Of a stretch of 64,000 bases of DNA, positions 26,450-58,679 are shown piece after piece (position 1 is the stretch's first letter; every line of letters begins with the position of its first letter). The notes below the pieces were generated by a model. That model saw only the letters and a list, made by a program, of their open reading frames with translations, ran no database searches and was not told where the DNA came from. This DNA comes from an uncultured Bacillales bacterium (GTDB lineage Bacteria; Bacillota_I; Bacilli_A; RFN20; CAG-288). The translations under genes were made by a program, and so were the position numbers. The stretch is taken from positions 8,669 to 72,668 of the forward strand of contig CALNAX010000069.1 of assembly GCA_937874465.1 (NCBI GenBank). Reading direction: 5' to 3'.

Positions 26450-26559
26450 AGCGTTGCAAGTCCTTCACTGACTACAACCGCCTTTTGTCGGCTTGAAAAG
26501 CCCAGTGGCTGCCGGACAAAAGCGAGTCTGAGTGAAAAAAAGAAGGAGGACGTACCAGG
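26450..26559 (+). ncRNA. structured 5' leader of rplU (possible L21-leader-type ribosomal autoregulatory element)
   Basis: About 110-nt leader with the hairpin CTTTTGTCGGC...GCCGGACAAAAG, in the position of the Firmicutes L21 leader. I cannot verify the covariance model by eye. Confidence 0.4.
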
Positions 26560-45687: not shown

Positions 45688-45732
45688 TTGTATCAACGTG
45701 GTCCGTAGTGGTATATTGTGGTCGTCAGTGGG
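45688..45732 (+). promoter_or_regulatory. mraZ promoter with four phased MraZ-box-like direct repeats
   Basis: TTGTAT (45688), an 18-nt spacer, then TATATT (45712). GTGGT at 45698, 45708 and 45718 and GTGGG at 45728, spaced exactly 10 nt apart. Confidence 0.65.
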
Positions 45733-45750
45733 AATTGGGAGGCGCTAGGA

Positions 45751-46191
45751 ATGTTCCTTGGATCGTCTGAGCACACGCTCGATGACAAGCTACGTCTGGT
45801 CCTTCCCAAAAAGGACCGGGAGGTTTTCGGTTCCAAGGCCGTGGTGGCCTGGGACTACGATGGCAACTTGGCCCTGTTCACGCTGACAGGCTTCCAATCC
45901 CGGGCCAGGCAGATCGAGTCCCTTTCGGATTTCGACCAGTCGGCCCGGGCCCTGAAGCGGACGTTCTTCGGCAAGTCGCTGGAGCTCGACATCGATAGCC
46001 ACGGCCGGGTGAACCTACCCAAATACCTTTTGGACAAGGCCGGCATCGTCAAGGAAGTCACCTTGGTGGGCGTGGTCGACAGGATCGAGCTTTGGGACAG
46101 CGCCAAGTACGAGGCCGTTTCCAAGGCCGAGGAGAAGGATTACCCATGTCTGGCACAGAAAATGCTAACTGGAACCCCGGATGCGAAGTGA
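45751..46191 (+). CDS. mraZ: transcriptional regulator MraZ
   Basis: Two SpoVT/AbrB-like repeats: LDDKLRLVLPKK and DSHGRVNLPKYL. ATG 45751 follows GGGAGG. Confidence 0.93.
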   Translation: MFLGSSEHTLDDKLRLVLPKKDREVFGSKAVVAWDYDGNLALFTLTGFQSRARQIESLSDFDQSARALKRTFFGKSLELDIDSHGRVNLPKYLLDKAGIVKEVTLVGVVDRIELWDSAKYEAVSKAEEKDYPCLAQKMLTGTPDAK

Positions 46192-47138
46192 CGGAGTACA
46201 ACGTCCATATCCCGGTGATGCTTACCGAGGTTCTCTCCTATCTTCGTAAGGACGTTCCCGATTACGTGGTGGTCGACATGACCATCGGGAGGGCCGGGCA
46301 TGCGGCAAACATCCTCAGCACCTTGGGCGCCAACTGTTTCCTCTACGGTTTCGACAGGGACATCGATGCCATCGACTATTCCCAGAAGAAACTCGGCAAG
46401 TACGGTTCCAACTTCAAGCTGTTCAAGGACCGCTTCTCCGATGCCATACGTCTCCTAAGGTCCAATGGCGTCAAGGGAGCCGACTTCATCCTCTTCGACA
46501 TCGGGGTCTCCTCCCCCCAGTTCGACGATCCGGAGAGGGGCTTCTCCTATCGCTTCGATGCGCCTTTGGACATGCGGATGGATCAGGGGCAGAAACTCAC
46601 GGCCCGGATGGTCGTGAACGACTACTCCCCGGCCGATCTGGAGAGGATCCTCAGGGACTATGGGGGCGAGACGTTTGCCCGGCCTATCGCCGAGGCGATA
46701 GTCAAGGCCCGCAAGGAGAAGCCCATCGCGACCACCTTCGAATTGGTGGACGTGATCAAGGGCGCCCTTCCCGAACGGATCCTCCACCATAAGGGCCATC
46801 CCGCCAAGAAGGCGTTCATGGCGATAAGGTACGAGGTCAACGACGAGAGGAAGGAACTGGAAAGGGCCCTCAACGACTCGATAAGGTTCCTTAACCTCGG
46901 CGGCAGGGTATGCGTCATCACCTTCAATTCCGACGAAGACGCCTTGGTCAAGAAGACCTTCCAGTCCTATTGCCCCCAAAGCGTCATCTCCCGGTTCTTG
47001 CCGCCTCTGCCTGGCGAGGGCCAACAGGAGTACCGGATCCTTACCCACAAACCGGTAAAGCCGTCCAAGGCAGAAGAAGAAGTCAATCCCCGGGCCGAAT
47101 CAGCATTGATGCGGGTCCTGGAAAGGAGTGGGGTATGA
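46146..47138 (+). CDS. rsmH: 16S rRNA (cytosine1402-N4)-methyltransferase RsmH
   Basis: HIPVMLTEVL, DMTIGRAGHA and DIGVSSPQFDDPERGFSY. ATG 46146 overlaps mraZ by 46 nt. An in-frame GTG at 46188 (a GTGA overlap with the mraZ stop) is an equally plausible start. Confidence 0.92.
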   Translation: MSGTENANWNPGCEVTEYNVHIPVMLTEVLSYLRKDVPDYVVVDMTIGRAGHAANILSTLGANCFLYGFDRDIDAIDYSQKKLGKYGSNFKLFKDRFSDAIRLLRSNGVKGADFILFDIGVSSPQFDDPERGFSYRFDAPLDMRMDQGQKLTARMVVNDYSPADLERILRDYGGETFARPIAEAIVKARKEKPIATTFELVDVIKGALPERILHHKGHPAKKAFMAIRYEVNDERKELERALNDSIRFLNLGGRVCVITFNSDEDALVKKTFQSYCPQSVISRFLPPLPGEGQQEYRILTHKPVKPSKAEEEVNPRAESALMRVLERSGV

Positions 47139-47359
47139 GCAAGTACGTAATCCTGAAGAAGAACGATCGCGAGAAGGAGCCCAAGAAGGTCCGCAATCGG
47201 ATCCTGACGTTGGTGGGTGCCTTGTTCGTGGTGGCCAGCGTGGCCTGCACGGCGGCTTTCGTTCCCTTGGCCGTCAGCGAGGCCAACCAAGCCCAAGAAG
47301 CAGAAGCCTATACCCAGCCGGAAAACAGCGATGGGAAAACCATCGTCGTCTTCAGGTGA
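47135..47359 (+). CDS. small bitopic membrane protein in the FtsL position
   Basis: 74 aa: MSKYVILKKNDREKEPKKVRNRILTLVGALFVVASVACTAAFVPLAV... ATGA overlap with the rsmH stop; GGAAAGGAG RBS. Confidence 0.45.
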   Translation: MSKYVILKKNDREKEPKKVRNRILTLVGALFVVASVACTAAFVPLAVSEANQAQEAEAYTQPENSDGKTIVVFR

Positions 47360-47445: not shown

Positions 47446-47518
47446 TTTTCCGACTACTGCCAAAGCTTTGCTAGTGGGAGCGCTTACTGCTTTTGCCACC
47501 CGCTGCCTAGTCGGAAAA
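47446..47518. repeat. perfect 11-bp inverted repeat with a 51-nt spacer
   Basis: TTTTCCGACTA (47446-47456) and TAGTCGGAAAA (47508-47518), in the 5' region of the lipoprotein gene. Confidence 0.6.
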
Positions 47519-47582
47519 TACCCATGACGATAAGTCCCCCTTAGGCGCTCGGATGGGCCTCCCCCTAAAACGGAGGTTTTGT

Positions 47583-49379
47583 ATGCAAAGGTCTTTCACC
47601 TTGTCGGGATTGGCCGCACTAGCAGTTTTGTTGGTTTCGTGCGGGTCGGGGTCGGAATCCCCCTTTTCTTCATCACCGGCAACCAGTTCGTCGGCGGGCT
47701 CGAGTTCCGAATCCGGTTCGGCCTTCACAAGCTCAGATTCCCTTGGAATGGACCCCTCTTCGTCGGGTACGTCCTCTTCCAGTGCCTCCCAAACGGACAT
47801 GGGGGCTTCGAGCATCAGCCAGGCCTTGGCCGGGGAAGAGGGCCAGAGCTGGACCATCGAGGGAACCGTGACCGAAATCCTCTATAGCAGCAGGGGCAGC
47901 ATCGCCCAAATATGGGTCTTCGATGGGACTGGGGGTATAGACCTATACAACGAGTCCGGCCTCCCTGATGTCGCAATCGGCAACGGGATCGTGGTTCTAG
48001 GGACCTATTCGATCTACAAGAACACCCCCGAACTGGAGGATGCAACCATCCTTTCTAACGATGGGATGACGTCTTTGACTCTGGATGATTCATGGATTGT
48101 CGATTCGACCGTTACCGACATCAAGGAACTGGCCGATAGCCCCGTCGGACAGATATTCCGGGTCCAGGCCATCATAGGCAAAGATGACAACTACGGGACT
48201 TATTACCTGAATGAGGTCGTCGGGGACGAATCCCTTCAGGCGTATTCCCAGAGCAGCTATAGTGAGTACGCCTTCCTGGACCAATATGTCGGAGAGGATG
48301 TCACCATCGTCTTCCAGGTCGGTACGCCCAAGGTTTCGAATGGCAACGAGATCACCCGCGTGATGCCTTTGTACGTGGAAAGCGTCATTACAAAGGAGGA
48401 CGAACAGGCGGAAGTGGATGCGTCCGTGAAGGAGGGGCTTAGGAAGGCCAACCTGGTCTTCTTCGGGCCGGGGAAGATCACCCTTCCGGGTACAAGCCAG
48501 TCATTGGAGGGGGCGACTTTCACCTATGGGGTATCGGACGAGGCGGCGGCCGTTGTTACCGAAAGGGAAGATGGGGATTACCAGGTCGACGTCTTGGGTA
48601 CCGCAGGCTTCACCATCAAGGCCACGTTGACCTATGGGAGCTTCGCCGCCACGGACCAGGCCCAGGTGGAGATAAGGGAAAAGCCGACCTTTTCGGCCAA
48701 CGATACCATCGAAAACCTCAGGCAAGAGGCCACTACGGGAGAAACGGTGACCATCGTCGGGGTGGTGGTCGGGGGCGTATTTGGCAACGGCAACGACGGA
48801 TACCGCTACAACGACTACTACGTGGCGGATTCTTCCGGTACCATCGAGGTTTACCTGACCGCGGACCAAGCTGGGAAGTTTGCCTTGGAAAAAGGGGAAC
48901 AGGTGGCTCTAACAGGGACCTGGGACATCTACGAAGGCGCGGCCAACACCAAGTCGGTGGAAGGGGCGACCGTGATATGGCATGATTCGGCTACTAACGA
49001 CCTGCCTTTGACCATCCCAAGCAGGGACTTTTCCTGGATGATCGACTACCAAGTCGATAGCCAGGACAACCGAAGCGGAGACGTTTTCTACATGGAGACA
49101 ATAGTGAAGAAGGTCGAGACGACCTACGGGACAGCCTATTATGCTTTCAGCCCGGATGCCACTTCCTTCGACACCTCGGACAAGACGGCGGCCAAGAACA
49201 TCTACAAGGCGAGCGGAGCCGACCTTTCGTATCTTGACCCCTGGCTGGACGGGAAGGTGACGGTCCTTATGGGCATCCACGACAAGAAGGCCGGCTACGA
49301 CGACAACGGAGAGGCCGAAAACGCCACGGGCGGCTATTATCGCTACGACATCATCCCGGGCTATTTCGCGCTGGACTGA
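47583..49379 (+). CDS. surface lipoprotein with a Ser-rich linker and two OB-fold-like modules
   Basis: MQRSFTLSGLAALAVLLVSCGSGS carries a lipobox (LLVSC). It is followed by about 60 aa of Ser-rich low-complexity sequence. Two T.xG.V....(F/V).D..G.I..Y segments follow. ATG 47583 follows GGAGG. Confidence 0.7.
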   Translation: MQRSFTLSGLAALAVLLVSCGSGSESPFSSSPATSSSAGSSSESGSAFTSSDSLGMDPSSSGTSSSSASQTDMGASSISQALAGEEGQSWTIEGTVTEILYSSRGSIAQIWVFDGTGGIDLYNESGLPDVAIGNGIVVLGTYSIYKNTPELEDATILSNDGMTSLTLDDSWIVDSTVTDIKELADSPVGQIFRVQAIIGKDDNYGTYYLNEVVGDESLQAYSQSSYSEYAFLDQYVGEDVTIVFQVGTPKVSNGNEITRVMPLYVESVITKEDEQAEVDASVKEGLRKANLVFFGPGKITLPGTSQSLEGATFTYGVSDEAAAVVTEREDGDYQVDVLGTAGFTIKATLTYGSFAATDQAQVEIREKPTFSANDTIENLRQEATTGETVTIVGVVVGGVFGNGNDGYRYNDYYVADSSGTIEVYLTADQAGKFALEKGEQVALTGTWDIYEGAANTKSVEGATVIWHDSATNDLPLTIPSRDFSWMIDYQVDSQDNRSGDVFYMETIVKKVETTYGTAYYAFSPDATSFDTSDKTAAKNIYKASGADLSYLDPWLDGKVTVLMGIHDKKAGYDDNGEAENATGGYYRYDIIPGYFALD

Positions 49380-49445
49380 AGAACAGATTCCGGAAGCCGC
49401 CTTTTTTCCCGACCTGCTTTTTCAGCGGATGTTTGCGAGCGACAA

Positions 49446-52400
49446 CTAGTCCCGCATCAGGATCAGGTCCTTGATGTACTCGTAGGACTTTACCAGGGAG
49501 TTGGGTATGACCAAAAGCCTTATGCCATGGCTTTGGCAGATGGCGGCTTTGCGGCGGTCGAGGCTCTCCCGGTGTGGGTCACCCATATGCTCGCCACCGT
49601 CGATCTCGATGGCGATGGCGGCAAGCTTGGGGTCCTTGATTATTGCGCCTGTCCGGTAAAGGACCAAATCGAATTCCTGTCGGGATCTGGAAAGGAGGGC
49701 ATCGGCGGGGAACAGGGAGGACAGAGGGACGTTGCGCCTGGCCTTGTAGTCGTCGTGCACGGAGCAGAACTGGCAGATGGTCTGGAAGAAGTAGTCCTCA
49801 TTCAGGCTTCCGTTCGATTTCCCGATGACGTTGGACTTCTTCTCGCTCTCCTCAATCCGGATGTTGCCATTGGAAGCGACGTAATCAACCAATTTCTTCA
49901 AATCGTCATGTCCCTGGGAAATCGCTTGGGAATGGAGGTCTATGGCCTGGCGGTCGGCATAGACGACCAGCTTCTGCTTGGCCCGGGTCACCGCCACGTT
50001 AATAAGCTCCTGGTTGTCCATCAGCCAGCGGTAGGTCATCCTGCTGGTCTTGGGGGAGATGGCCGTCGAGAGGATCACGGTCTTGGCCTCCCCGCCCTGC
50101 ATGGAATGGATGGTCTCCGCACGAATGCCGTTGAGCCCGGCGGCGTCGAGCCTTTGGTTTATGAGGTCGCGCTGGTTGCGGAAAGGGGTGAGAATCACGG
50201 TGTCTTCGTAGCCGTTGCGTCTTAAGTAACTGACGATACCGTCGGCTTCGGCGGCGAAGCCGTTGCGGGAAGAACCCGCCTCGTTCTTGACCAGGGCGAG
50301 TTCCAGAATGCCTTCGTTTTTGATTTTCCCTAGGTTAAGCTGGCTGCGGTAGTAGAGGGCGTTGGAGAATTGGATGATCCTGCGGCCGCACCGGTAATGG
50401 TAGGAAAGGAAGACGCGCTTTGAGATGTTGTCGTGCGACTCCATGACCGAGAGGATCGAATTTTCGCAGTAGCCATAGGAGGGATCGACCCCTAAACGAG
50501 AGGCGATCTTCTCCCCGGTAGCCTTGTCCAACAAGACGACCGGCCTCAACTGGTTCATGTCGCCCACCAAGAGCAAGGAATCGGCCCTGGCGATGGGAAG
50601 TAGGGCATGGGCCTCGTTGCATTGGCCTGCCTCGTCCATTATCGCCAAATCGAAGATTGGTTTTCCGCTTCCCAACTTTCCTGCCGAGATGTTGGTTGTG
50701 AAGACAATCGGGAACACCGTGAGTAGGGTCTTTACGTTTTCATCGAAGCTGAGCCATCTTGCGAATTCCCTTACCCGCTGGTCATTGTCCTCTATGTCGC
50801 ATATCGAAAGGAGGGAGCCAAACTTCGGCTGCTTGATACGCAACAGGTAGCGGAGCGACTCGAAGGAGAGGTATTGCAAAAAGTCGTTGTCCTCAAAAGC
50901 CGGCCTGAACAATCCGATGACTTCCTGGTTGGTCACCTTGGGGAGTCTTTCAAGCTTAGCTTCCAATTCCCCATCCACATCCCTGACCTTCTTTGCGAAC
51001 GTGGAGGAGGAATCGGTTTTGCCTTCTAACTTCCGGATGGTTCCCAGTCGACTCCCTAGTTCGCTACGCGCCTCATAGTTCGCCAGGAGTTGGACGAGCT
51101 TGCGGTTGGTGGCCATGCTTTCTTCCTTCCGGGCCTTTAAAAGGTTGTCTATGGGGACCCGGGTCTCCTTCTGGCTGCGGACGAAGATTTCCTTGATCCG
51201 ATCCAAGGCCTTCCCCATCTCGGCGGAATTGCCCAAGCGGAGATATGGGAAATCGATGGGCCGGCCACGGTATTGGAAATTCAGAAGGCCAACGATGCCA
51301 TCGACGGGCCTGTTGTTGCCCGAGCACACCAAGACCGTCTTGCCGTTGAAGAAGGCGCTTAGGACGACGTTCAAAAGCGTCTGGGTCTTTCCCGTGCCAG
51401 GAGGGCCCTCGACATAGGTGACCGGTTGGCTCATGGCGTTGAAGAGGACCCGCATCTGGTCGATGTTGATGCGCCTGTCGTAGATGACTATGGCCGGGAT
51501 GGTGCGCCTAAGGTTCCTGGTGGAGATGTTGCCGAAGAAGGCCTTGAGCGGAACCGGGAGGGTGTTGTCCAGGTATTCGGCCGCTATCTGCGCGAAGGTG
51601 GGAGCCAGGGAAACGGAGAAATCGTGTTCGATGATGAGGATTCGGGGCTGGGTGTTTATCTTTCCGGAGCTCAGATGGGCCCGGATGATCTCTTCCCCGG
51701 CCCGGGGATCCTCTTTGTAAAGGGCTATGAACTCGTCAACGTCCATCTCGGTAAGGTAAAAGAGGGAGAGGGAACGAGCCTTGCCAATCGCTTTTCCCTC
51801 GGTGAAGGACTTGTTGAAGCGGAGTTCCTTTCCCATGGCCAAGGTATGGCCCTTGGGATTGAAGCCAAGTTCCCGATAGGCCAAGACATATTGCTGGTCC
51901 CCCCTGTCTATGGCCAAGACGGAGAGGGCCAGAGTCGAAAAGGCCAGCTTCGATTTGCGGAGGTCATAGTGGTAGATGTCAGCCACCATCACTGCCTGTT
52001 GCTCCTTGGTAAGCGTCAGGGAGCGTTTGGCCGCAAGGACACCGAGGTCGATTCCCGGAATCATTAGACCGGCCTTCTGGTATGGGCTCGAATCAAGTTT
52101 GCTGCATTCCTTCAGGTAGTTGAGGATGTTGATGTCGAAGGAATCGAAGTCGAGCCACAGGAAAAGGTCCCGGTCCCTCTCTATCTTCGCAATCAGCGCC
52201 TGGTTCTCGTGACCGTAGGTGAACTCGAGGGCCTTGGCGGCGGTGATCCTTTCGAAGCTGATGTTGGCAGGGGTCGGATCGGGGGCCTTGCCGATGTTGA
52301 ACATCAAGACCGAGAGCCGGTGGCTCAGGCCGTCGATGTCCTCCACGTATATCCAATAATCGGTGTGTCCCGATGCCTTGCCGTCATAGCCGATGGCAAT

Positions 52401-52451
52401 CCACTTGGACTCCTTGATCCCCTTGGAAATCTCCTTTGCTATCCGATTCAT
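49446..52451 (-). CDS. SF1 (Upf1/DNA2-type, AAA_11/AAA_12-like) helicase fused to a C-terminal Vsr/DUF2726-like nuclease fold, with an unassigned N-terminal region
   Basis: VEGPPGTGKTQT, AIMDEAGQ, LLVGDMNQLRPVV, LSYHYRCGRRI, TIHSMQGGEAKTVILS and VAVTRAKQKLVVY. C-terminal EFDLVLY..AIAIEIDGGEHMGDPHRESLDRRKAAICQSHGIRLLVIP. The track start at 52541 is TTG. ATG candidates are 52472 and 52451; 52451 has the AAGGAAAGA RBS. Confidence 0.85.
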   Translation of the reverse strand: MNRIAKEISKGIKESKWIAIGYDGKASGHTDYWIYVEDIDGLSHRLSVLMFNIGKAPDPTPANISFERITAAKALEFTYGHENQALIAKIERDRDLFLWLDFDSFDINILNYLKECSKLDSSPYQKAGLMIPGIDLGVLAAKRSLTLTKEQQAVMVADIYHYDLRKSKLAFSTLALSVLAIDRGDQQYVLAYRELGFNPKGHTLAMGKELRFNKSFTEGKAIGKARSLSLFYLTEMDVDEFIALYKEDPRAGEEIIRAHLSSGKINTQPRILIIEHDFSVSLAPTFAQIAAEYLDNTLPVPLKAFFGNISTRNLRRTIPAIVIYDRRINIDQMRVLFNAMSQPVTYVEGPPGTGKTQTLLNVVLSAFFNGKTVLVCSGNNRPVDGIVGLLNFQYRGRPIDFPYLRLGNSAEMGKALDRIKEIFVRSQKETRVPIDNLLKARKEESMATNRKLVQLLANYEARSELGSRLGTIRKLEGKTDSSSTFAKKVRDVDGELEAKLERLPKVTNQEVIGLFRPAFEDNDFLQYLSFESLRYLLRIKQPKFGSLLSICDIEDNDQRVREFARWLSFDENVKTLLTVFPIVFTTNISAGKLGSGKPIFDLAIMDEAGQCNEAHALLPIARADSLLLVGDMNQLRPVVLLDKATGEKIASRLGVDPSYGYCENSILSVMESHDNISKRVFLSYHYRCGRRIIQFSNALYYRSQLNLGKIKNEGILELALVKNEAGSSRNGFAAEADGIVSYLRRNGYEDTVILTPFRNQRDLINQRLDAAGLNGIRAETIHSMQGGEAKTVILSTAISPKTSRMTYRWLMDNQELINVAVTRAKQKLVVYADRQAIDLHSQAISQGHDDLKKLVDYVASNGNIRIEESEKKSNVIGKSNGSLNEDYFFQTICQFCSVHDDYKARRNVPLSSLFPADALLSRSRQEFDLVLYRTGAIIKDPKLAAIAIEIDGGEHMGDPHRESLDRRKAAICQSHGIRLLVIPNSLVKSYEYIKDLILMRD

Positions 52452-52542
52452 TCTTTCCTTAGGGAATAGCATAGTTTCAAAGGCGAATGATTTAAAGAGC
52501 GGAAATGGCCAATCGCCATAGCATTTATTGGTCAAAGCCAAT

Positions 52543-52571
52543 TTGAAAAAATGGACTTACGAAAGTATAAT
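52543..52571 (+). promoter_or_regulatory. promoter of the KdgT-like permease gene
   Basis: TTGAAA (52543-52548), a 17-nt spacer, then TATAAT (52566-52571). Confidence 0.6.
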
Positions 52572-52591
52572 CGCTGGAAAAAGGAATCGTT

Positions 52592-53638
52592 ATGGAAAAA
52601 GAAAGCCGAAAAACAATCGTGCCGTTCTTCGACATGCTTCACGTCTTCCCGGGTGCCATCACCATCTTCCCGCTGTTGATAACCGCCACCATCACGACCA
52701 TCGGCAATGCCTATGGGGTGGATGTTTGGGGCACCATCGGCAATCCGGTGAAGGAGCTGTTCTCGAAGTCGGGCCTGATCCCGACCTTGGGGTTGATGCT
52801 GTTCTTCATCGGGACGCAGGTGGACGTAAGGAAACTGGGGAACCTCCTCAAGCTGGGATTGCCCCTCTTCCTGATCAAGCACGGGGTGATATTCCTGGCC
52901 GCTACCGTTTTCCTGTTCGCCTTTTCCTTCGACGGCCTCTACGGGCTGGGCTTCGTCCTGTTCCTGGGCTGCATGGCCGTCCAGAACGCCGGCCTGTACA
53001 ACGGGATAGCCGATGCCTATGCCGACGATTCGGACCGGGCATTCATAAGCCTCAGCTTCTTCTCCTACATCCCGGCCCTGTTCTTCCTGGCGTGGGCTTC
53101 GGCCGGCAACAGCAACTTCAATTACCTTTCCGTGATCTCGACCTGCATCCCCTTGGCCTTGGGCCTTCTGCTTGGCAACCTCGATTTCAAGATGGCCAAC
53201 ATGTTCAGCAAGGGGAATTCCCTGATCGCCATGTTCATCGGCTTCCAGCTCGGGGGGTTCATCGACTTCCGCTCGATCGTCGGCTTGGTACCCCTGGGCT
53301 TGGTCCTGACCGCCTTCTACTATCTGTTTGCCGTCCTGCCGGGCTTCTTGGCGGAGAAGTTCATCTTCAAGAGGAGCGGCTACCTGATACTCTCCTTCTC
53401 CGGGGAGGGCGTGCTTTGCCTCTCCCTGCCCTCGATGTTCTATCCGGAAGGGTCAGCGCTGGTGGAGTCCGCTACCGGGGTATTGACCTTCGTGATGGTA
53501 GTGACCAGCCTTCTGGCGCCCCTTCTGACCGATTTGGCCAATAGGTATGAGTACGAAAAGCACCCCGAGCTCATGGGGCAAAAGACCCCCAGGGCCTTCC
53601 AGTTCTACCGCGAGAAGCTCAAGGCGAAGAAGGCCTGA
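52592..53638 (+). CDS. 2-keto-3-deoxygluconate permease family (KdgT-like) transporter
   Basis: 348-aa polytopic membrane protein. The N-terminal FPGAITIFPLL...G.....G..P.L....FF.G.Q..... pattern resembles KdgT as I recall it. The overlapping alternative-frame ORF 52528..53544 is rejected. Confidence 0.6.
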   Translation: MEKESRKTIVPFFDMLHVFPGAITIFPLLITATITTIGNAYGVDVWGTIGNPVKELFSKSGLIPTLGLMLFFIGTQVDVRKLGNLLKLGLPLFLIKHGVIFLAATVFLFAFSFDGLYGLGFVLFLGCMAVQNAGLYNGIADAYADDSDRAFISLSFFSYIPALFFLAWASAGNSNFNYLSVISTCIPLALGLLLGNLDFKMANMFSKGNSLIAMFIGFQLGGFIDFRSIVGLVPLGLVLTAFYYLFAVLPGFLAEKFIFKRSGYLILSFSGEGVLCLSLPSMFYPEGSALVESATGVLTFVMVVTSLLAPLLTDLANRYEYEKHPELMGQKTPRAFQFYREKLKAKKA

Positions 53639-53668
53639 AAAAAAGATGGGCAACTGCCCATCTCTTTC
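53638..53668 (-). terminator. intrinsic terminator of the DEAD-box helicase gene (possibly bidirectional)
   Basis: AGATGGGC-aact-GCCCATCT perfect 8-bp hairpin, flanked by an A7 run (a U-tract on the minus strand) and CTTTC on the plus strand. Confidence 0.7.
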
Positions 53669-55433
53669 AGAACTTACGCTTGCCGTGACCGAAGTGGTGG
53701 CTGTCCTTGTAGCCCCCGAAGGAGGAACGGTGGCCACCATAGGAGGAATGGCCGTGGCCACTGAACCGGCCATGTGAATGGCCATAGCCGCCGGAAGTCT
53801 TCCGTTGCTGGGCCTTCTCGATGCTGACCTCCCGGCCGTTGAAGTTACGACCGTTCAGGCCATCCATGAGCTTCGCGGAGAACTTGTCGGGAAGGGTCAA
53901 AAACGAATAGGCCTCCTTGAGGAAGACGTCGGCGAAGTCATCCTTGGTGACCTCGGGGACGTTGGCGGTGACGAATTCCTTCAAACCGTCCTCGTCCAAG
54001 CCATCGTTGGTACCGAGGTTTATGAAGAAGCGCTGGTTGCCATCGGCATCGGCCGGGGCGGCATCCCGGTCGTCAGGCTCGCGGCTATGACGGCCTTCCT
54101 TGGACTTCTCGAACTTCGAGGTGACCGTAGTCACGGGGTTTTGGGACTCCCTGATCAGGATCATGGCGGCTACTTCCTCGGGTGTCACCACCCTCTTTGC
54201 GGCAGCGGAGAACTCCTTGGCCGCATCTTCCAGTTCCTTCAGCGCCTCGGCCTTGTCCTGTGCCAACAATGGCTTGAGGCTATCGAGATACTTCTTCATG
54301 GCTTTGCTATCGCCTCCTTTGTCCAACACGTATTCAGTCAGCGGCTCGCCTGACAATTTGGCGTATTTGCCGATGAGGTTGGTTTCCCTGGGCGTCAAGA
54401 AGGTGAACGAAGTGCCCTTGGCATCGACACGCCCCGTACGGCCGATGCGGTGGAGGTAGAACTCGTCCTCCATCGGCACGTCGAAGTTGATGACCACGTC
54501 GACGTCGCTTACGTCGATGCCTCTGGCCGCGATATCGGTAGCGACCATGATGTCGGTCTTGTTGTCCCGGAAGCTCGCCATGTTGGCGTCACGTTTGTTT
54601 TGGGAGAGGTTGCCTTGCAGGGAAGTGATCCGGTGGTCGGTATTAAGCTTCAGTATCTTCTCGATCTCCATGACCTTGCGCTTGGTCTTGCAAAAGACGA
54701 AGGCACGATCGAAGCTAAGCTCGTCGATAAGGTTTACCAAGGCGCCCTTCTTCTCGAACTCGCTTACCAGCAGGTACCTCTGGGCGATCTGGTGTTGATG
54801 GGAGGAATCCCTGACTACCTTCACGCTTTCGTAGTCGGGCGCGAGGTAACGTCTCGATATCTTCTTGATCTCGGGGGAGATGGTGGCGCTGAAGAGACCG
54901 GTTTGATGCGGGGTCTTGATGGCGGAAAGAATGCTGTTTATGTCCCTTATGAAGCCCATGTCCAGCATCTCGTCGCATTCGTCCAGCACCAAGTAGGAGA
55001 CATGGGAGATGTCTAGCTTCCCCTGCTTGATCAAATCGAGCATCCGCCCGGGGGTACCGACTATGATCGAGGGCTTTTTCTTCTTCAGGCCCATTATTTG
55101 GACGTTTATGCTCTGACCGCCGAATATGGCAAGGGTCTTGACCCCGGGAACGTATTTCCCGAAGCGGTTTATCTCCTCCTCGACCTGCTTGGCCAATTCG
55201 CGGGTCGGGCAAAGCACCAGGCCCTGGATCTGGCCATTGGGCTGGAGCTTGTTGAGCAAAGGCAGACTGTAGCAGGCGGTCTTGCCGGTTCCCGTAGGGG
55301 CCTCGGCTTCGACGTCCTTCCCAGCCAGGAGAATGGGCAGGGCCTTCTCCTGGATGGGAGTCGGTTCCTTGTAGCCCATCTCCTCGATGGCTTTGATAAT
55401 CTCGTCTCGCAAAGGTAATTCTGTTATTTTCAT
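53667..55433 (-). CDS. DEAD-box (DECD variant) ATP-dependent RNA helicase with a DbpA-like RNA-binding domain and a Gly/His/Ser-rich tail
   Basis: Q motif PTPIQ, then AEAPTGTGKTA, PTRELA, motif II VLDECD, SAT, ARGID and HRIGRTGR. C-terminal tail GGYGHSHGRFSGHGHSSYGGHRSSFGGYKDSHHFGHG. Confidence 0.93.
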   Translation of the reverse strand: MKITELPLRDEIIKAIEEMGYKEPTPIQEKALPILLAGKDVEAEAPTGTGKTACYSLPLLNKLQPNGQIQGLVLCPTRELAKQVEEEINRFGKYVPGVKTLAIFGGQSINVQIMGLKKKKPSIIVGTPGRMLDLIKQGKLDISHVSYLVLDECDEMLDMGFIRDINSILSAIKTPHQTGLFSATISPEIKKISRRYLAPDYESVKVVRDSSHQHQIAQRYLLVSEFEKKGALVNLIDELSFDRAFVFCKTKRKVMEIEKILKLNTDHRITSLQGNLSQNKRDANMASFRDNKTDIMVATDIAARGIDVSDVDVVINFDVPMEDEFYLHRIGRTGRVDAKGTSFTFLTPRETNLIGKYAKLSGEPLTEYVLDKGGDSKAMKKYLDSLKPLLAQDKAEALKELEDAAKEFSAAAKRVVTPEEVAAMILIRESQNPVTTVTSKFEKSKEGRHSREPDDRDAAPADADGNQRFFINLGTNDGLDEDGLKEFVTANVPEVTKDDFADVFLKEAYSFLTLPDKFSAKLMDGLNGRNFNGREVSIEKAQQRKTSGGYGHSHGRFSGHGHSSYGGHRSSFGGYKDSHHFGHGKRKF

Positions 55434-55602
55434 TTAAAAGCACTGGATAGTAGCACAAACGCCAACCATTAGCAAATGGCAATCGGAGACGTGAAACCCC
55501 ACTGGGCAAGGAAAAGGTCCTATAATCAGGCGATCCGGCGAGTTGGAGTGTCGCCTCGGAAGGTCGGAGGCCGGTTGTCTTTGGGCCCCATGGAGGCTAT
55601 TC

Positions 55603-56673
55603 ATGTTTCTGGCTTTGAGGGAGATGAGGCGGTCCAGGGGGAAGTTCTCCCTGATATTAGTCGTCATTTCGCTCGTCTGCTTCCTGGCTTTCTTCTTGAC
55701 GTCCTTGGCGTATGGGCTGGCGAGTTCCTATACCGAGGGCCTGGAAAGGTTTGGGGCCGACGGCTATGTCCTTAACGGGGAAGCGGATGGCAATTCCCTT
55801 CTTTCCCTCATCGGGGAGGAGAAGGGGGAGGATTTGAAGATTGCGGGTGCGAAGGCCTATTTCGGGGTCACTCCCGCGGTCTTGGGCCACCCCGAGTCCG
55901 ATGGGAGCCTCATCGACAGGGAAGAGGTGTACGTCTTTGGGATAGACAGCGCTGGCTTTTTGCTCCCCGAAGGCCACGAGTCCCTTTCCGATGGCGAGGC
56001 GTTGGTGGACCAAAGCCTGAAAGGCCAGGGCTATGCGCTAGGGGATACCCTAGGCCTATCAGGAAGTTCCTTGACCTTGAAGGTAGCCGGTTTCGTGGAC
56101 GGCTATACCTACCAGACCGCTCCGATGGTCTTGACCACGATCCCTTCCTGGCGTCAGCTCAGGTTTGGCATGACGGACCCTCCTGACCTTCTGAGCGGGG
56201 TCGCCATCAAGGGGGAAGTGACGAGCATCGACGAGAGCCTGGAGTTTTTCACTTCGCGCGAATTCGCGTTCAATCTCCCCGGTTACATGGCGCAGGTGTT
56301 GACCTTCGGCCTCATGATCGGATTCCTGATCCTTATAGACTCGTTGGTCATCGCCATCTTCGTCTATGTCCTCACGACCCAAAAGACCAACCTCTTTGGC
56401 GTGATGAAGGCGGAGGGCATACCCGATTCCTACATCTCGGCTTCGGTGTTGGACCAGACCATGATCTTGACCCTTGGGGGGATGGTAATCGGCCTGGCCT
56501 TGGCCTTAATCCTGGGGTTTGCCCTTCCTTCAAGCGTTCCCTTCGCCCTCAATCCGCTGTTTTTGGCGGTGATAGCAGTGCTGTTCGTGACCTTCGCCGG
56601 CCTGGGCGGGCTTTTCTCGGTGAGACAGGTGCTCAGGATCGACCCGCTGGTGGCGATGGGAAAGGGCGAATGA
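55603..56673 (+). CDS. ABC transporter permease, FtsX/MacB-like
   Basis: MFLALREMRRSRGKFSLILVV start, an N-terminal TM, an extracytoplasmic domain of about 200 aa and 3 C-terminal TM segments. ATG 55603 follows GGAGG. Confidence 0.8.
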   Translation: MFLALREMRRSRGKFSLILVVISLVCFLAFFLTSLAYGLASSYTEGLERFGADGYVLNGEADGNSLLSLIGEEKGEDLKIAGAKAYFGVTPAVLGHPESDGSLIDREEVYVFGIDSAGFLLPEGHESLSDGEALVDQSLKGQGYALGDTLGLSGSSLTLKVAGFVDGYTYQTAPMVLTTIPSWRQLRFGMTDPPDLLSGVAIKGEVTSIDESLEFFTSREFAFNLPGYMAQVLTFGLMIGFLILIDSLVIAIFVYVLTTQKTNLFGVMKAEGIPDSYISASVLDQTMILTLGGMVIGLALALILGFALPSSVPFALNPLFLAVIAVLFVTFAGLGGLFSVRQVLRIDPLVAMGKGE

Positions 56674-56674
56674 C

Positions 56675-57352
56675 ATGGAACCGATACTTGAAATGGATGG
56701 GGTCTACAAAGACTTTGGCCAGGGAGTCCAGGTCGTCCATGCCCTGAGGCCCACCGACTTTAGGGCCTATCCGGGGAAGGTCATCACGATCCTGGGCCCT
56801 TCCGGCGCCGGCAAGTCCACCTTCCTCACGATCCTTGGGGGGCTACAGGAACCAAGCGGGGGCAAGGTGAATATCGGAGGCATGACCTTCAGCGGCCTGC
56901 CGCCGAAGAGGAAGGCCGCCCTGAGGCTCAAGACAGTCGGCTTCGTCCTGCAGGCCTATAACCTTATTCCCTTTTTGACGACCCGGGAACAGCTGGAGCT
57001 CCTGGACAGGGTCCAAAGGCGAAGAAGCGACAATAAGTGGCTGACAGGACTTCTGGCCGAGCTGGGGATCGCCGACCTCGAGAGGAAATACCCCAATGAG
57101 CTTTCGGGGGGCCAAAAGCAGCGAGTAGCGATCGCCAAGGCCCTTTACGGCAAACCCCGGGTCCTGTTCGCCGACGAACCGACGGCCAGCCTCGACACAG
57201 CCAATGGCTTTGCCGTTATGGAACTCCTAACGAAGATAACGAAGGCCCAGGACATGACCACTGTAGTGGTGACCCATGACGAAAGGCTCACCCGCTTCTG
57301 CGACGAATCGTATGAAATCGTCGACGGGGTCTTGACCAAGACCAAAGGCTGA
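56675..57352 (+). CDS. ABC transporter ATP-binding protein (MacB/LolD-like)
   Basis: GPSGAGKST, LSGGQKQRVAIAKAL, LFADEPT and VTHD. Confidence 0.93.
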   Translation: MEPILEMDGVYKDFGQGVQVVHALRPTDFRAYPGKVITILGPSGAGKSTFLTILGGLQEPSGGKVNIGGMTFSGLPPKRKAALRLKTVGFVLQAYNLIPFLTTREQLELLDRVQRRRSDNKWLTGLLAELGIADLERKYPNELSGGQKQRVAIAKALYGKPRVLFADEPTASLDTANGFAVMELLTKITKAQDMTTVVVTHDERLTRFCDESYEIVDGVLTKTKG

Positions 57353-57362
57353 GGCTTCCCAA

Positions 57363-58391
57363 TCAAAAGGAAATATTCGTCGGGAATAGAGTTTTCTTGG
57401 AGGCGAAAAGGACATGCTTGTCGAAGGCGTTGTTGGCCAAGAGGTTCTTTATCTCGCCTTCGCTGGCGTGGGAATTGAAGAAGATCTGGAAGGTATGGGG
57501 CCGGTTCAAGAGGTAGGAAGCGGCAACGCTTCCATCGTCGACCGAACCCGAAAGGATCAAGGCCTTGTCGGGGTTGTTCTCTACTAAGGCCCTGGTATCG
57601 GGATTTTGGAAATCCTTGTCGGTGAAGACCACCGGCTTGCCTGTGCCTTTAAGCCTATCTCCTGGTCTTGAAGAAGACGGCTTGAGCCAAGCCTTCAGGT
57701 TTTCCCTGAACAGGCCGCCCCTGACGATCGTCTCGTATCCCCAGTCTTCCAGCATTTCCCTGACGATGATTCCCCGCCCGTTCCCGGAGACGGGCAAAAG
57801 CACGTTCCCGTTGTATTTGGCGACCAATGACTTTAGTCTCAAGAGGTTTGCGGCCAAAGGCGGGACGTCCTTATGCCAGTAGCTTCCGTCGATTATGGCT
57901 ATGTCGGCCTTTCGATGGCGGATGGGGTCGCAAAGGTAGGGGGAGTCTTCAAGGTAATCGCCGGTGAACACGATCCTTTTGCCCCGGAAACGGATGTCGA
58001 ACCACAAGGAGCCGATGCAATGGCCGGCCTTGCCGGAGTCGACGGTCAATTCCCTACCGACTGTCAAAGCCACGCCGGGCTCTATTGCTTTTATCGCCAA
58101 CGAGGGCAAAAGGCCAGGATAAAGACCCTTAAGGTAATTCTCGGTCTCTCCCGACATAAGGAACGGTCCCTTGAATCCGGCCTTGACGAGGGACGGTATA
58201 CCCCCGACGTGGTCCAGATGGGAATGGGATATAAACACGGCCAAGAGGTCTTGGGCCAAGCCGGGAGCAAAGGTTGGGCCCCTTCCGTTGTCATCGACTC
58301 CGCAATCCAAAAGTAATGATTTTCCATCGCTTTTTATCAAAAAGCAATTTCCTTGATGGTTATTAAGACCCGACAATGATTCAAATTCCAT
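57363..58391 (-). CDS. MBL-fold metallo-hydrolase
   Basis: HSHLDHVGG (HxHxDH) and a downstream GHCIGS; 342 aa. Confidence 0.8.
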   Translation of the reverse strand: MEFESLSGLNNHQGNCFLIKSDGKSLLLDCGVDDNGRGPTFAPGLAQDLLAVFISHSHLDHVGGIPSLVKAGFKGPFLMSGETENYLKGLYPGLLPSLAIKAIEPGVALTVGRELTVDSGKAGHCIGSLWFDIRFRGKRIVFTGDYLEDSPYLCDPIRHRKADIAIIDGSYWHKDVPPLAANLLRLKSLVAKYNGNVLLPVSGNGRGIIVREMLEDWGYETIVRGGLFRENLKAWLKPSSSRPGDRLKGTGKPVVFTDKDFQNPDTRALVENNPDKALILSGSVDDGSVAASYLLNRPHTFQIFFNSHASEGEIKNLLANNAFDKHVLFASKKTLFPTNISF

Positions 58392-58679
58392 TTTTCGTTT
58401 CCTTGCCTATTATCCTACGGCCGTTTCTCTAAGGGTACCGAATGGGTAAGAAGCATTGTAAAGCCAACGGCTATTAGAAATGCGTTATCTTGTTTTGCAG
58501 GATCGGCAAATTATGCCAAAAAGCCTTGCCCGGGAAAATTGGGGCTCCAACAGAGGTTTTTAACGGAGATATATTTTCTTTCGACCATAGGCTTGCAAAG
58601 ACCTTACGGGGGGATTGCTTGAATCCAGCAATGGACCCCTTACCCCCCAAAGATGCAGGTGGCTTTCCCGTTTTCGCCT

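Follow-up and report, generated by a model that had tools for sequence, protein, structure and literature searches.

Does a helicase-nuclease gene that stands by itself among otherwise housekeeping genes protect its bacterial host from invaders, or does it serve the host's own DNA? This question is raised by a minus-strand gene in a stretch of 64,000 nucleotides from an uncultured Bacillales bacterium (contig CALNAX010000069.1, positions 8,669 to 72,668), here called the window. The encoded protein has three parts, namely an N-terminal module of about 325 amino acids (aa), a Upf1/DNA2-type superfamily 1B (SF1B) helicase and a C-terminal DUF2726 nuclease. Its catalytic motifs are conserved, its architecture is fixed among the 150 best clusters of the family, no partner gene accompanies it, its distribution is patchy and accessory, and family members are frequently placed among defence genes. 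We consider it a self-contained helicase-nuclease that would most likely act as a single-gene defence against phages or other invading DNA, with a probability of roughly 0.55. An initial annotation of the window had read the gene product as a stand-alone nucleic-acid-sensing helicase-nuclease, possibly an undescribed variant. The architecture and the genomic context support this reading, and the function is what we infer from them.

The gene and its start codon

The window contains a real, intact open reading frame (ORF) at 49446..52541 on the minus strand, 1031 aa long when translated from a TTG start. The six helicase motifs and the C-terminal motif quoted in the initial annotation are all present in its translation. 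The true start, judged from the sequence and its homologues, is probably the ATG at 52451, and the gene extent given before (49446-52541) is thus corrected to 49446-52451, encoding 1001 aa:

49446..52451, minus strand, coding sequence of the 1001-aa protein (stop codon 49446-49448, start ATG 52449-52451)
52453..52460, minus strand, sequence AAGGAAAG resembling a ribosome-binding site (RBS), directly 5' of ATG 52451 (sequence reading)

This start was chosen because the identical database protein P0001 has 1001 aa and the homologues are about as long (among the 120 best ones listed, nearly all have about 1000 aa, with 97% query coverage), and because AAGGAAAG lies just upstream, whereas sequence reading revealed no RBS-like site at the upstream in-frame TTG (52541) or ATG (52472). 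The family alignments, too, all begin at M31 of the 1031-aa form, which corresponds to ATG 52451. Residues are numbered according to the 1001-aa form throughout.

As the initial annotation had described, the gene is convergent with a lipoprotein-like gene (47553-49379, plus strand) and divergent from a KdgT permease gene (52592-53638, plus strand, Pfam KdgT). Its further statement that the gene is its own transcription unit stands with respect to gene orientation, on which alone we base it. A simple scan detected no minus-strand promoter for the helicase-nuclease gene, the sole promoter-like site being located on the plus strand and placed for kdgT. Likewise, no terminator was found in the 66-bp convergent gap, which folds no better than shuffled sequence (z = -1.24). 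Contig DAITSZ010000001.1 (metagenome-assembled genome (MAG) GCA_036843085.1) corresponds to the window, as do near-identical contigs of metagenomes from fermentation and other sources.

Helicase core and nuclease domain

The two enzymatic parts of the protein occupy the following positions:

49917..51476, minus strand, Upf1/DNA2-type SF1B helicase core, aa 326-845 (Pfam AAA_11 and AAA_12)
51384-51407, minus strand, Walker A motif GPPGTGKT, invariant in the family
50622-50639, minus strand, motif II MDEAGQ, invariant in the family
49449..49916, minus strand, C-terminal region, aa 846-1001, which holds the DUF2726 nuclease
49449-49829, minus strand, DUF2726 PD-(D/E)xK nuclease core, aa 875-1001 (Pfam, profile, AlphaFold (AF2) and Foldseek)

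By its sequence, the protein qualifies as a Upf1/DNA2-like SF1B helicase. AAA_11 was matched with 105.4 bits (5.5e-30) and AAA_12 with 65.6 bits (5.6e-18), the Pfam cutoff being 27 for each, and the closest PDB structures by sequence are IGHMBP2, DNA2, Upf1/NAM7 and Sen1. Conservation was followed in a set of 18 family members, 44-47% identical to the window protein. GPPGTGKT, DE, GDxxQLxP, QGxE and TRA, representing Walker A, Walker B and motifs III, V and VI, respectively, are invariant in this set.

The C-terminus is predicted to form a PD-(D/E)xK nuclease of the Vsr/DUF559 group with intact catalytic residues. On the isolated C-terminus, DUF2726 (PF10881) reached 24.7 bits, which is exactly its gathering score, and on the whole protein 21.1 bits, which is below it; all 18 family members were matched, with a best E of 3.2e-9. 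A profile of the C-terminus matched the Vsr-like homing endonuclease I-Bth0305I (3r3p), and the catalytic residues D928, E949, D965 and K968 aligned with it. The AF2 model of the nuclease (pLDDT, i.e. predicted local distance difference test, 78.7; built, like the model of the N-terminus, on a shallow alignment of 18 sequences with 36-54% identity to the query) had its best Foldseek matches in BstEII, TnsA, I-Bth0305I, a VRR-NUC protein and the DUF559 protein 3hrl, each a PD-(D/E)xK fold. Seven nuclease residues are invariant among the 18 members (E885, D928, E949, E954, H955, D965 and K968). DUF2726 has been described as a DNase of the restriction endonuclease fold, grouped with Vsr and DUF559 (PMC3424549, PMC3710099). 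The matches in Pfam, in PDB, by profile and by fold agree on the combination of a helicase with a Vsr/DUF2726-type nuclease that was noticed in the initial annotation; the nuclease, first put at about 90 aa, comprises about 125 aa (875-1001), including a conserved first helix with E885.

The N-terminal module

The part preceding the helicase is subdivided as follows:

52212..52451, minus strand, N-terminal module 1, aa 1-80, one helix leading into a WYL/SH3-like barrel of five strands (AF2)
52008..52211, minus strand, helical connector, aa 81-148 (AF2 secondary structure), with the conserved motif WL.YD....L.YY.EC..LD.DP.QK
51747..52007, minus strand, N-terminal module 2, aa 149-235, one helix leading into the second beta module of five strands (AF2)
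51477..51746, minus strand, alpha/beta connector between module 2 and the helicase, aa 236-325, with the conserved PLKAFFG at its end and low pLDDT past residue 305

Its length, previously estimated at about 360 aa, is corrected to about 325 aa. The region had been said to match nothing that could be named, and Pfam, PADLOC and NCBIfam indeed contain no match for residues 1-325; nor does the N-terminus match any domain of replication or repair. A sequence-profile search of the N-terminus against PDB returned noise only (e.g. RuBisCO small subunit and fumarase), and the matches in a viral fold library were limited to small SH3-like phage proteins, uncharacterised or labelled as WYL, all with an E no better than 1e-3. 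When the N-terminal sequences of the 18 members were searched against Pfam, two of them matched YolD weakly (best E 0.0039). YolD has been placed in the WYL superfamily (Makarova et al. 2014, PMC4012209).

AF2 modelled the N-terminus (pLDDT 79.4, predicted template modelling score (pTM) 0.75) as two units of a helix and five strands, at residues 1-75 and 149-229. These units coincide with the two stretches in which barrels of WYL/Sm type had been suspected. In module 1, the strands comprise residues 18-23, 29-40, 45-52, 56-65 and 69-74, and in module 2 residues 170-183, 186-198, 203-212, 215-218 and 226-229. Invariant residues in the family alignment are K16, Y22, W33, N52, I69 and A72 of module 1 and L100, L110, Y112, C116, D120, P123, G133 and D135 of the helical connector.

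Compared by Foldseek with PDB, the N-terminal model matched WYL proteins first, namely BrxR, CapW, DriD and PafBC. The best match was BrxR (E 5.8e-3, probability 0.99; one chain with 77 residues at 3.7 A and 23% identity), the output giving no assignment of the aligned region to module 1 or module 2. Because no PDB match of the model reached E<=1e-3 and none of the 18 N-terminal sequences had a Pfam WYL match at E<=10, we call the module WYL-like by structure only. An internal duplication giving rise to the two barrels was also considered and found unsupported (local hhalign E 0.0099, probability 4%).

Family and distribution

In a profile search of 1.84 billion representatives, the N-terminal module was found in 479 clusters at 50% identity. 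Among the best 150 of these, it was always located N-terminally; the full-length matches have about 1000 aa, and those of lesser length seem to be fragments. When species-representative genomes were scanned, the full-length architecture was detected in MAGs of Mollicutes-like Bacilli, in relatives of Acholeplasma and Izemoplasma, in Erysipelotrichaceae including Holdemania filiformis DSM 12042, in many Bacteroidota (among them Algoriphagus, Cyclobacterium, Flavobacterium, Kordia, Winogradskyella and Chryseolinea) and in one Cardiobacteriaceae MAG. The distribution is patchy and crosses phyla, being confined to scattered species.

More distant proteins share the order AAA_11, AAA_12 and DUF2726, with 24-28% identity over residues ~294-980, but differ N-terminally: the region preceding AAA_11 varies from about 0 to 330 aa and has no Pfam match in any of them. 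They originate from Gilliamella, Listeria, Enterococcus, Arthrobacter and Clostridium genomes, from Spirochaetales and Izemoplasma MAGs, and from plasmids of E. coli and Parabacteroides, and are annotated as 'AAA domain-containing protein' or 'DNA2/NAM7 family helicase'. No experimental work on them was found in the literature searched, the coverage of which is incomplete. Since these relatives have the common core and different N-termini, the window protein belongs, by sequence comparison, to one subfamily of a broader helicase-DUF2726 class.

Two of the plasmid-borne relatives have neighbours of their own. On E. coli plasmid NZ_CP124741.1 (locus L093:5510-8190), a relative of 722 aa has almost no N-terminal region, with AAA_11 starting from residue 7. 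The ORF of 171 aa that precedes and overlaps it could be an N-terminal component that has become a separate gene; downstream of the relative lie PAPS-reductase and ParB-N genes. On Parabacteroides distasonis plasmid NZ_OY725763.1 (locus L094:1-8229), a relative of 902 aa lies downstream of, and co-oriented with, an N6 DNA methylase gene, a TIR-domain gene and two hypothetical genes, which is a defence-like arrangement.

Genomic neighbourhoods

No conserved partner was detected. Among 285 neighbours, taken as four genes either side at 40 loci, the largest cluster of homologues spans 3 loci, in agreement with the initial annotation of a stand-alone gene. Out of eight contexts that were fully annotated with Pfam, four are defence islands, as follows (L numbers designate the loci):

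L004, SLFN-type helicase and Type ISP restriction enzyme
L006, DUF4379/MTES_1575 protein, nSTAND3-AAA-protease, Cas4/DUF2779 and LlaJI
L009, QatABCD, DUF3427-PLD helicase and AbiJ-kinase
L091/L092, DUF3427-PLD helicase, GIY-YIG protein, AlbA_2 and nSTAND protein

A wider survey of 213 neighbours (three genes either side at 40 genome loci), the defence counts of which are qualitative and without a background control, gave Pfam matches to McrBC (three times), SLFN-g3 helicase (four), AlbA_2/HATPase_c_4 (three), Fic (three) and DUF3427-PLD (two). In the same set, PADLOC (E<1e-10) identified Drt2 (1e-118), BrxA/BrxB, two Type IV mREases (1e-158), the Thoeris TIR gene ThsB (2e-59), three SoFic, two PbeA, several PDC candidates including PDC-S41 (1.5e-244), and further candidates.

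Beside family members of several genomes, a superfamily 2 (SF2) helicase with DUF3427 and phospholipase D (PLD) domains, of about 930-980 aa, recurs together with an adjacent small NUDIX protein. The two may form a candidate defence pair of their own, carried along in the islands of the family:

L009:3499-7988, DUF3427/PLD helicase and NUDIX protein
L057:5493-9982, DUF3427/PLD helicase and NUDIX protein
L045:6575-9906, DUF3427/PLD helicase and NUDIX protein
L091/L092:2446-5638, DUF3427/PLD helicase and NUDIX protein

An accessory gene

In the two nearest available relatives (L095 and L096, with RsmH 68% and 61% identical), the series pheS-pheT-...-mraZ-rsmH-small ORF leads straight into thrS. 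In the window, a block of about 11 kb (~47500-58400) separates thrS from the small ORF downstream of rsmH; besides the helicase-nuclease gene, it contains the genes of the lipoprotein, KdgT, a DEAD-box helicase, FtsX/ABC transporters and a protein of the metallo-beta-lactamase (MBL) fold. A third relative (57%) also has no helicase-nuclease gene at the syntenic site; these relatives are at roughly genus-to-family distance, and copies elsewhere in their genomes are possible. Core-gene conservation at this locus, a possibility named in the initial annotation, was not observed, as the gene is absent from the syntenic site in all three nearest relatives. The 11-kb block resembles a region of variable cargo. 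Neither mobility genes nor a tRNA were noticed in it, ARAGORN found no tRNA gene in the 64-kb window, and the gene is not flanked by direct or inverted repeats beyond short chance-level ones.

A sister strain is 99.76% identical to the window over 21 kb, its copies of the gene at L098:13301-16306 and L099:7465-10470 corresponding to window positions 49446-52451. The gene differs by nine substitutions, three of them GAA-to-TAA nonsense, three missense and three synonymous, with no indels. The nonsense codons are:

window position 51872, E194*
window position 50303, E717*
window position 50249, E735*

Two samples agree in this pattern, and C>T changes prevail among the mutations of the region, so that a blanket G>T artefact is not at work. 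Assembly error as the source of the split ORFs was rejected on the same grounds, i.e. substitutions without indels, identical in two samples, within a C>T-dominated spectrum. From its sequence, the gene looks like a pseudogene in this strain. Given that there is no conserved neighbour, that the context varies, that the gene is absent from the syntenic site and that the sister strain carries nonsense mutations, the helicase-nuclease gene is dispensable and accessory.

Other genes of the block differ between the two strains as well. In the sister strain, FtsX, too, is broken up into two ORFs. In kdgT (52592-53638), there are 12 differences in 1047 bp, including a change of length (348 vs 350 aa); this density is 2 to 10 times that of the other differing genes in the region, and kdgT may represent a local recombination patch.

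Possible functions

To explain these features, we propose the following model. i) The tandem WYL-like barrels would bind single-stranded nucleic acid, or a related anionic ligand, arising from phage replication or DNA damage. ii) Binding would load or license the SF1B (5'-to-3') motor of Upf1/DNA2 type on the foreign nucleic acid. iii) Translocation driven by ATP would deliver the C-terminal DUF2726 nuclease, which would cut DNA. In this model, we infer both the ligand and the polarity, and likewise that DNA is the target and that the role is one in defence.

Several observations weigh against defence. The assignment of the N-terminal module as WYL-like comes from modelled structure with modest scores, and membership in the family is unsupported by sequence. 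WYL proteins and YolD are also tied to DNA-damage responses, which would fit a repair role equally well. Four of the eight annotated contexts, that of the window included, are housekeeping neighbourhoods, and the counts of defence neighbours given above are qualitative. Searches of phage and plasmid collections turned up no full-length copy. Finally, the gene resembles its host genome in composition (GC 0.554 vs 0.575 +/- 0.020; GC at third codon positions (GC3) 0.759 vs 0.765), which gives no sign of recent transfer.

Going further than defence as such, we put forward tentatively that the protein is an undescribed single-protein immune system. The tandem WYL-like barrels would then be a built-in allosteric sensor of phage single-stranded DNA (ssDNA) or of a nucleotide signal, switching on the fused helicase and Vsr-clan nuclease, and the wider helicase-DUF2726 core would represent a modular sensor-effector superfamily with a logic like that of Avs or Hachiman-type systems.

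Among the other explanations, a DNA repair or replication-rescue factor survives best, and we still regard it as rather unlikely. Such a Dna2-like enzyme would place its barrels on ssDNA at gaps, flaps and stalled forks and process intermediates of the host, notably in Mollicutes-like Bacilli with small genomes. The nearest sequence relatives of the helicase (IGHMBP2, DNA2 and Upf1) speak for it, as do the weak matches of two in 18 members to the SOS-associated YolD (PMC4012209) and the sensing of ssDNA in damage responses by the WYL regulators PafBC and DriD (PMC11804915, PMC13004042); half of the annotated contexts being housekeeping and the composition being native to the genome would also be expected of it. 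However, a repair factor is difficult to reconcile with a patchy distribution over scattered species of several phyla, with the absence of the gene from the syntenic site in the nearest relatives, or with three nonsense mutations in a near-identical strain. Moreover, family members recur among defence-associated reverse transcriptase (DRT), BREX, McrBC, Thoeris, Qat and restriction-modification (R-M) genes, and Pfam detected neither an N-terminal Cas4-like nuclease nor an iron-sulphur (Fe-S) domain of the Dna2 type. It is because of this genomic context and the patchy, accessory distribution that defence is favoured over repair.

Targeting of RNA seems improbable. Here, surveillance or abortive infection resembling Mokosh or Upf1 would be assumed, in which phage transcripts or RNA-DNA hybrids are unwound and RNA or R-loops are cut. 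The best PADLOC matches are indeed the Mokosh helicases MkoC and MkoA, and the Upf1-like clade includes RNA helicases (PMC11090510). Despite these matches, Pfam found no PLD nuclease in the window protein; DUF2726, Vsr, DUF559, I-Bth0305I, TnsA and BstEII are DNases (PMC3424549, PMC3710099), and the WYL domains of CapW, DriD, PafBC and TePif1 bind ssDNA. A selfish element of homing or transposition type, without benefit to the host, is very improbable: although the C-terminal fold is like that of the homing endonuclease I-Bth0305I and the transposase subunit TnsA, genomic positions differ among genomes, and DUF2726 genes have been noted near mobile elements (PMC3424549), there are no flanking repeats, no recombinase or transposase recurring among the neighbours, no tRNA gene in the window and no full-length copies in plasmid or phage collections, and the family consists of a long, strongly conserved three-domain protein.

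If the defence role holds true, a compact one-gene helicase-nuclease system would be added to the defence repertoire, with hosts mainly among little-studied Mollicutes-like Bacilli of gut and rumen and environmental Bacteroidota, and a WYL-type sensor would be wired straight to an effector enzyme instead of to transcription. The N-terminal module of about 325 aa could be defined as a new domain family, and the helicase-DUF2726 core with its varied N-termini offers a tractable system for studying how sensors are swapped on a shared effector. Should the protein prove to act in repair, it would represent a Dna2-like enzyme of bacteria in which the domains are unusually ordered.

Other features of the window

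The lipoprotein gene that neighbours the helicase-nuclease gene (47553-49379, plus strand) encodes about 600 aa with a lipobox-like LLVSCGSG and a long Ser-rich linker, and has no precomputed Pfam match. A relative (L097) carries a gene of similar size (774 aa) at the same position, whose function is unassigned. Upstream, at 45718-47359, the division/cell-wall cluster is cut down to mraZ-rsmH and an ORF of about 75 aa, with no ftsL, pbp or mur genes following (L095-L098). Genes of FtsA and FtsZ are located upstream of pheS (L098), and L097 has an FtsZ-domain protein of 994 aa. The reduced division cluster would be consistent with a wall-less or Mollicutes-like lineage of Bacilli despite the GC content of ~57%. 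The only Rfam match at gathering score in the 64-kb window is a ribosomal protein L21 leader at 26466-26539 (plus strand, 47.9 bits).

Comparison with known systems

The initial annotation had set the protein apart from Hhe and Nhi, and this distinction is borne out: it does not qualify as either under the NCBIfam and PADLOC models, nor as Mokosh. Hhe was reportedly described by Gao et al. 2020 as a single-gene system composed of DUF4011, a Upf1-like helicase, a Vsr/DUF559-type endonuclease and DUF3320. With the window protein it shares a single polypeptide in which an SF1B helicase of AAA_11/AAA_12 type is followed by a Vsr-clan PD-(D/E)xK nuclease. However, Hhe has about 1800-1900 aa with DUF4011 and DUF3320, whereas the window protein has 1001 aa and, according to Pfam, neither of these domains, a tandem WYL-like N-terminus, and a nuclease matching DUF2726 rather than DUF559 or MTES_1575. 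It scores 71.9 bits with the NCBIfam model of Hhe (NF042953; cutoff 2000), and the PADLOC Hhe model matches only residues 604-736. Hhe is a validated single-gene defence, lost upon mutation of its nuclease residue (bioRxiv 10.1101/2022.06.16.496414).

The best PADLOC matches, MkoC (4e-43) and MkoA (6.4e-33), arise via the shared Upf1-like helicase core, the MkoC match covering profile positions 671-964 of 1136 only. In Mokosh (MkoA/MkoB, or the fused MkoC), the helicase is paired with a nuclease of the PLD family, whereas the window protein has no fused PLD domain in Pfam and no adjacent one, its neighbours being the lipoprotein gene and kdgT. Nhi was not among the 23 PADLOC families matched at E<=1. 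Nhi and Hna are single-protein nuclease-helicase defences triggered via the phage single-stranded DNA-binding protein (SSB) or replication intermediates (PMC10732053). By analogy, the window protein may share their functional logic, i.e. one protein with helicase and nuclease acting on phage replication intermediates, while it differs from them in domain order and families.

The WYL proteins BrxR, CapW, DriD and PafBC provide the best structural matches of the modelled N-terminus. Unlike the WYL regulators of transcription, the window protein has no winged helix-turn-helix (wHTH) or WCX domain, and it is therefore not a transcription factor. WYL domains are often paired and fused to SF1 helicases (PMC4012209), and those of CapW, DriD, PafBC and TePif1 bind ssDNA (PMC11662680, PMC11804915, bioRxiv 10.1101/163188). 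As an accessory module of TePif1, the WYL domain binds ssDNA and links unwinding to ATPase activity (bioRxiv 10.1101/163188); it is located C-terminally on a Pif1-type helicase, whereas the barrels of the window protein precede a helicase of Upf1 type. Dna2 and the bacterial Dna2-like Bad have an N-terminal Cas4/RecB-like nuclease with Fe-S cysteines. In the window protein, by contrast, the nuclease is C-terminal, and the N-terminal 325 aa, modelled as beta barrels and helices, have no match to a nuclease family in Pfam. The wider AAA_11-AAA_12-DUF2726 proteins have the helicase-plus-DUF2726 core in common with it and differ in their N-terminal regions.

No description of an architecture with a WYL-like N-terminus, a Upf1-type helicase and DUF2726 was found in the literature searched (coverage incomplete). 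As classes, single-gene helicase-nuclease defences and WYL-helicase fusions are already known. What is new here, with respect to the libraries and papers searched, is the combination of a tandem WYL-like N-terminus with a Upf1-type helicase and a DUF2726 nuclease, together with the N-terminal module itself.

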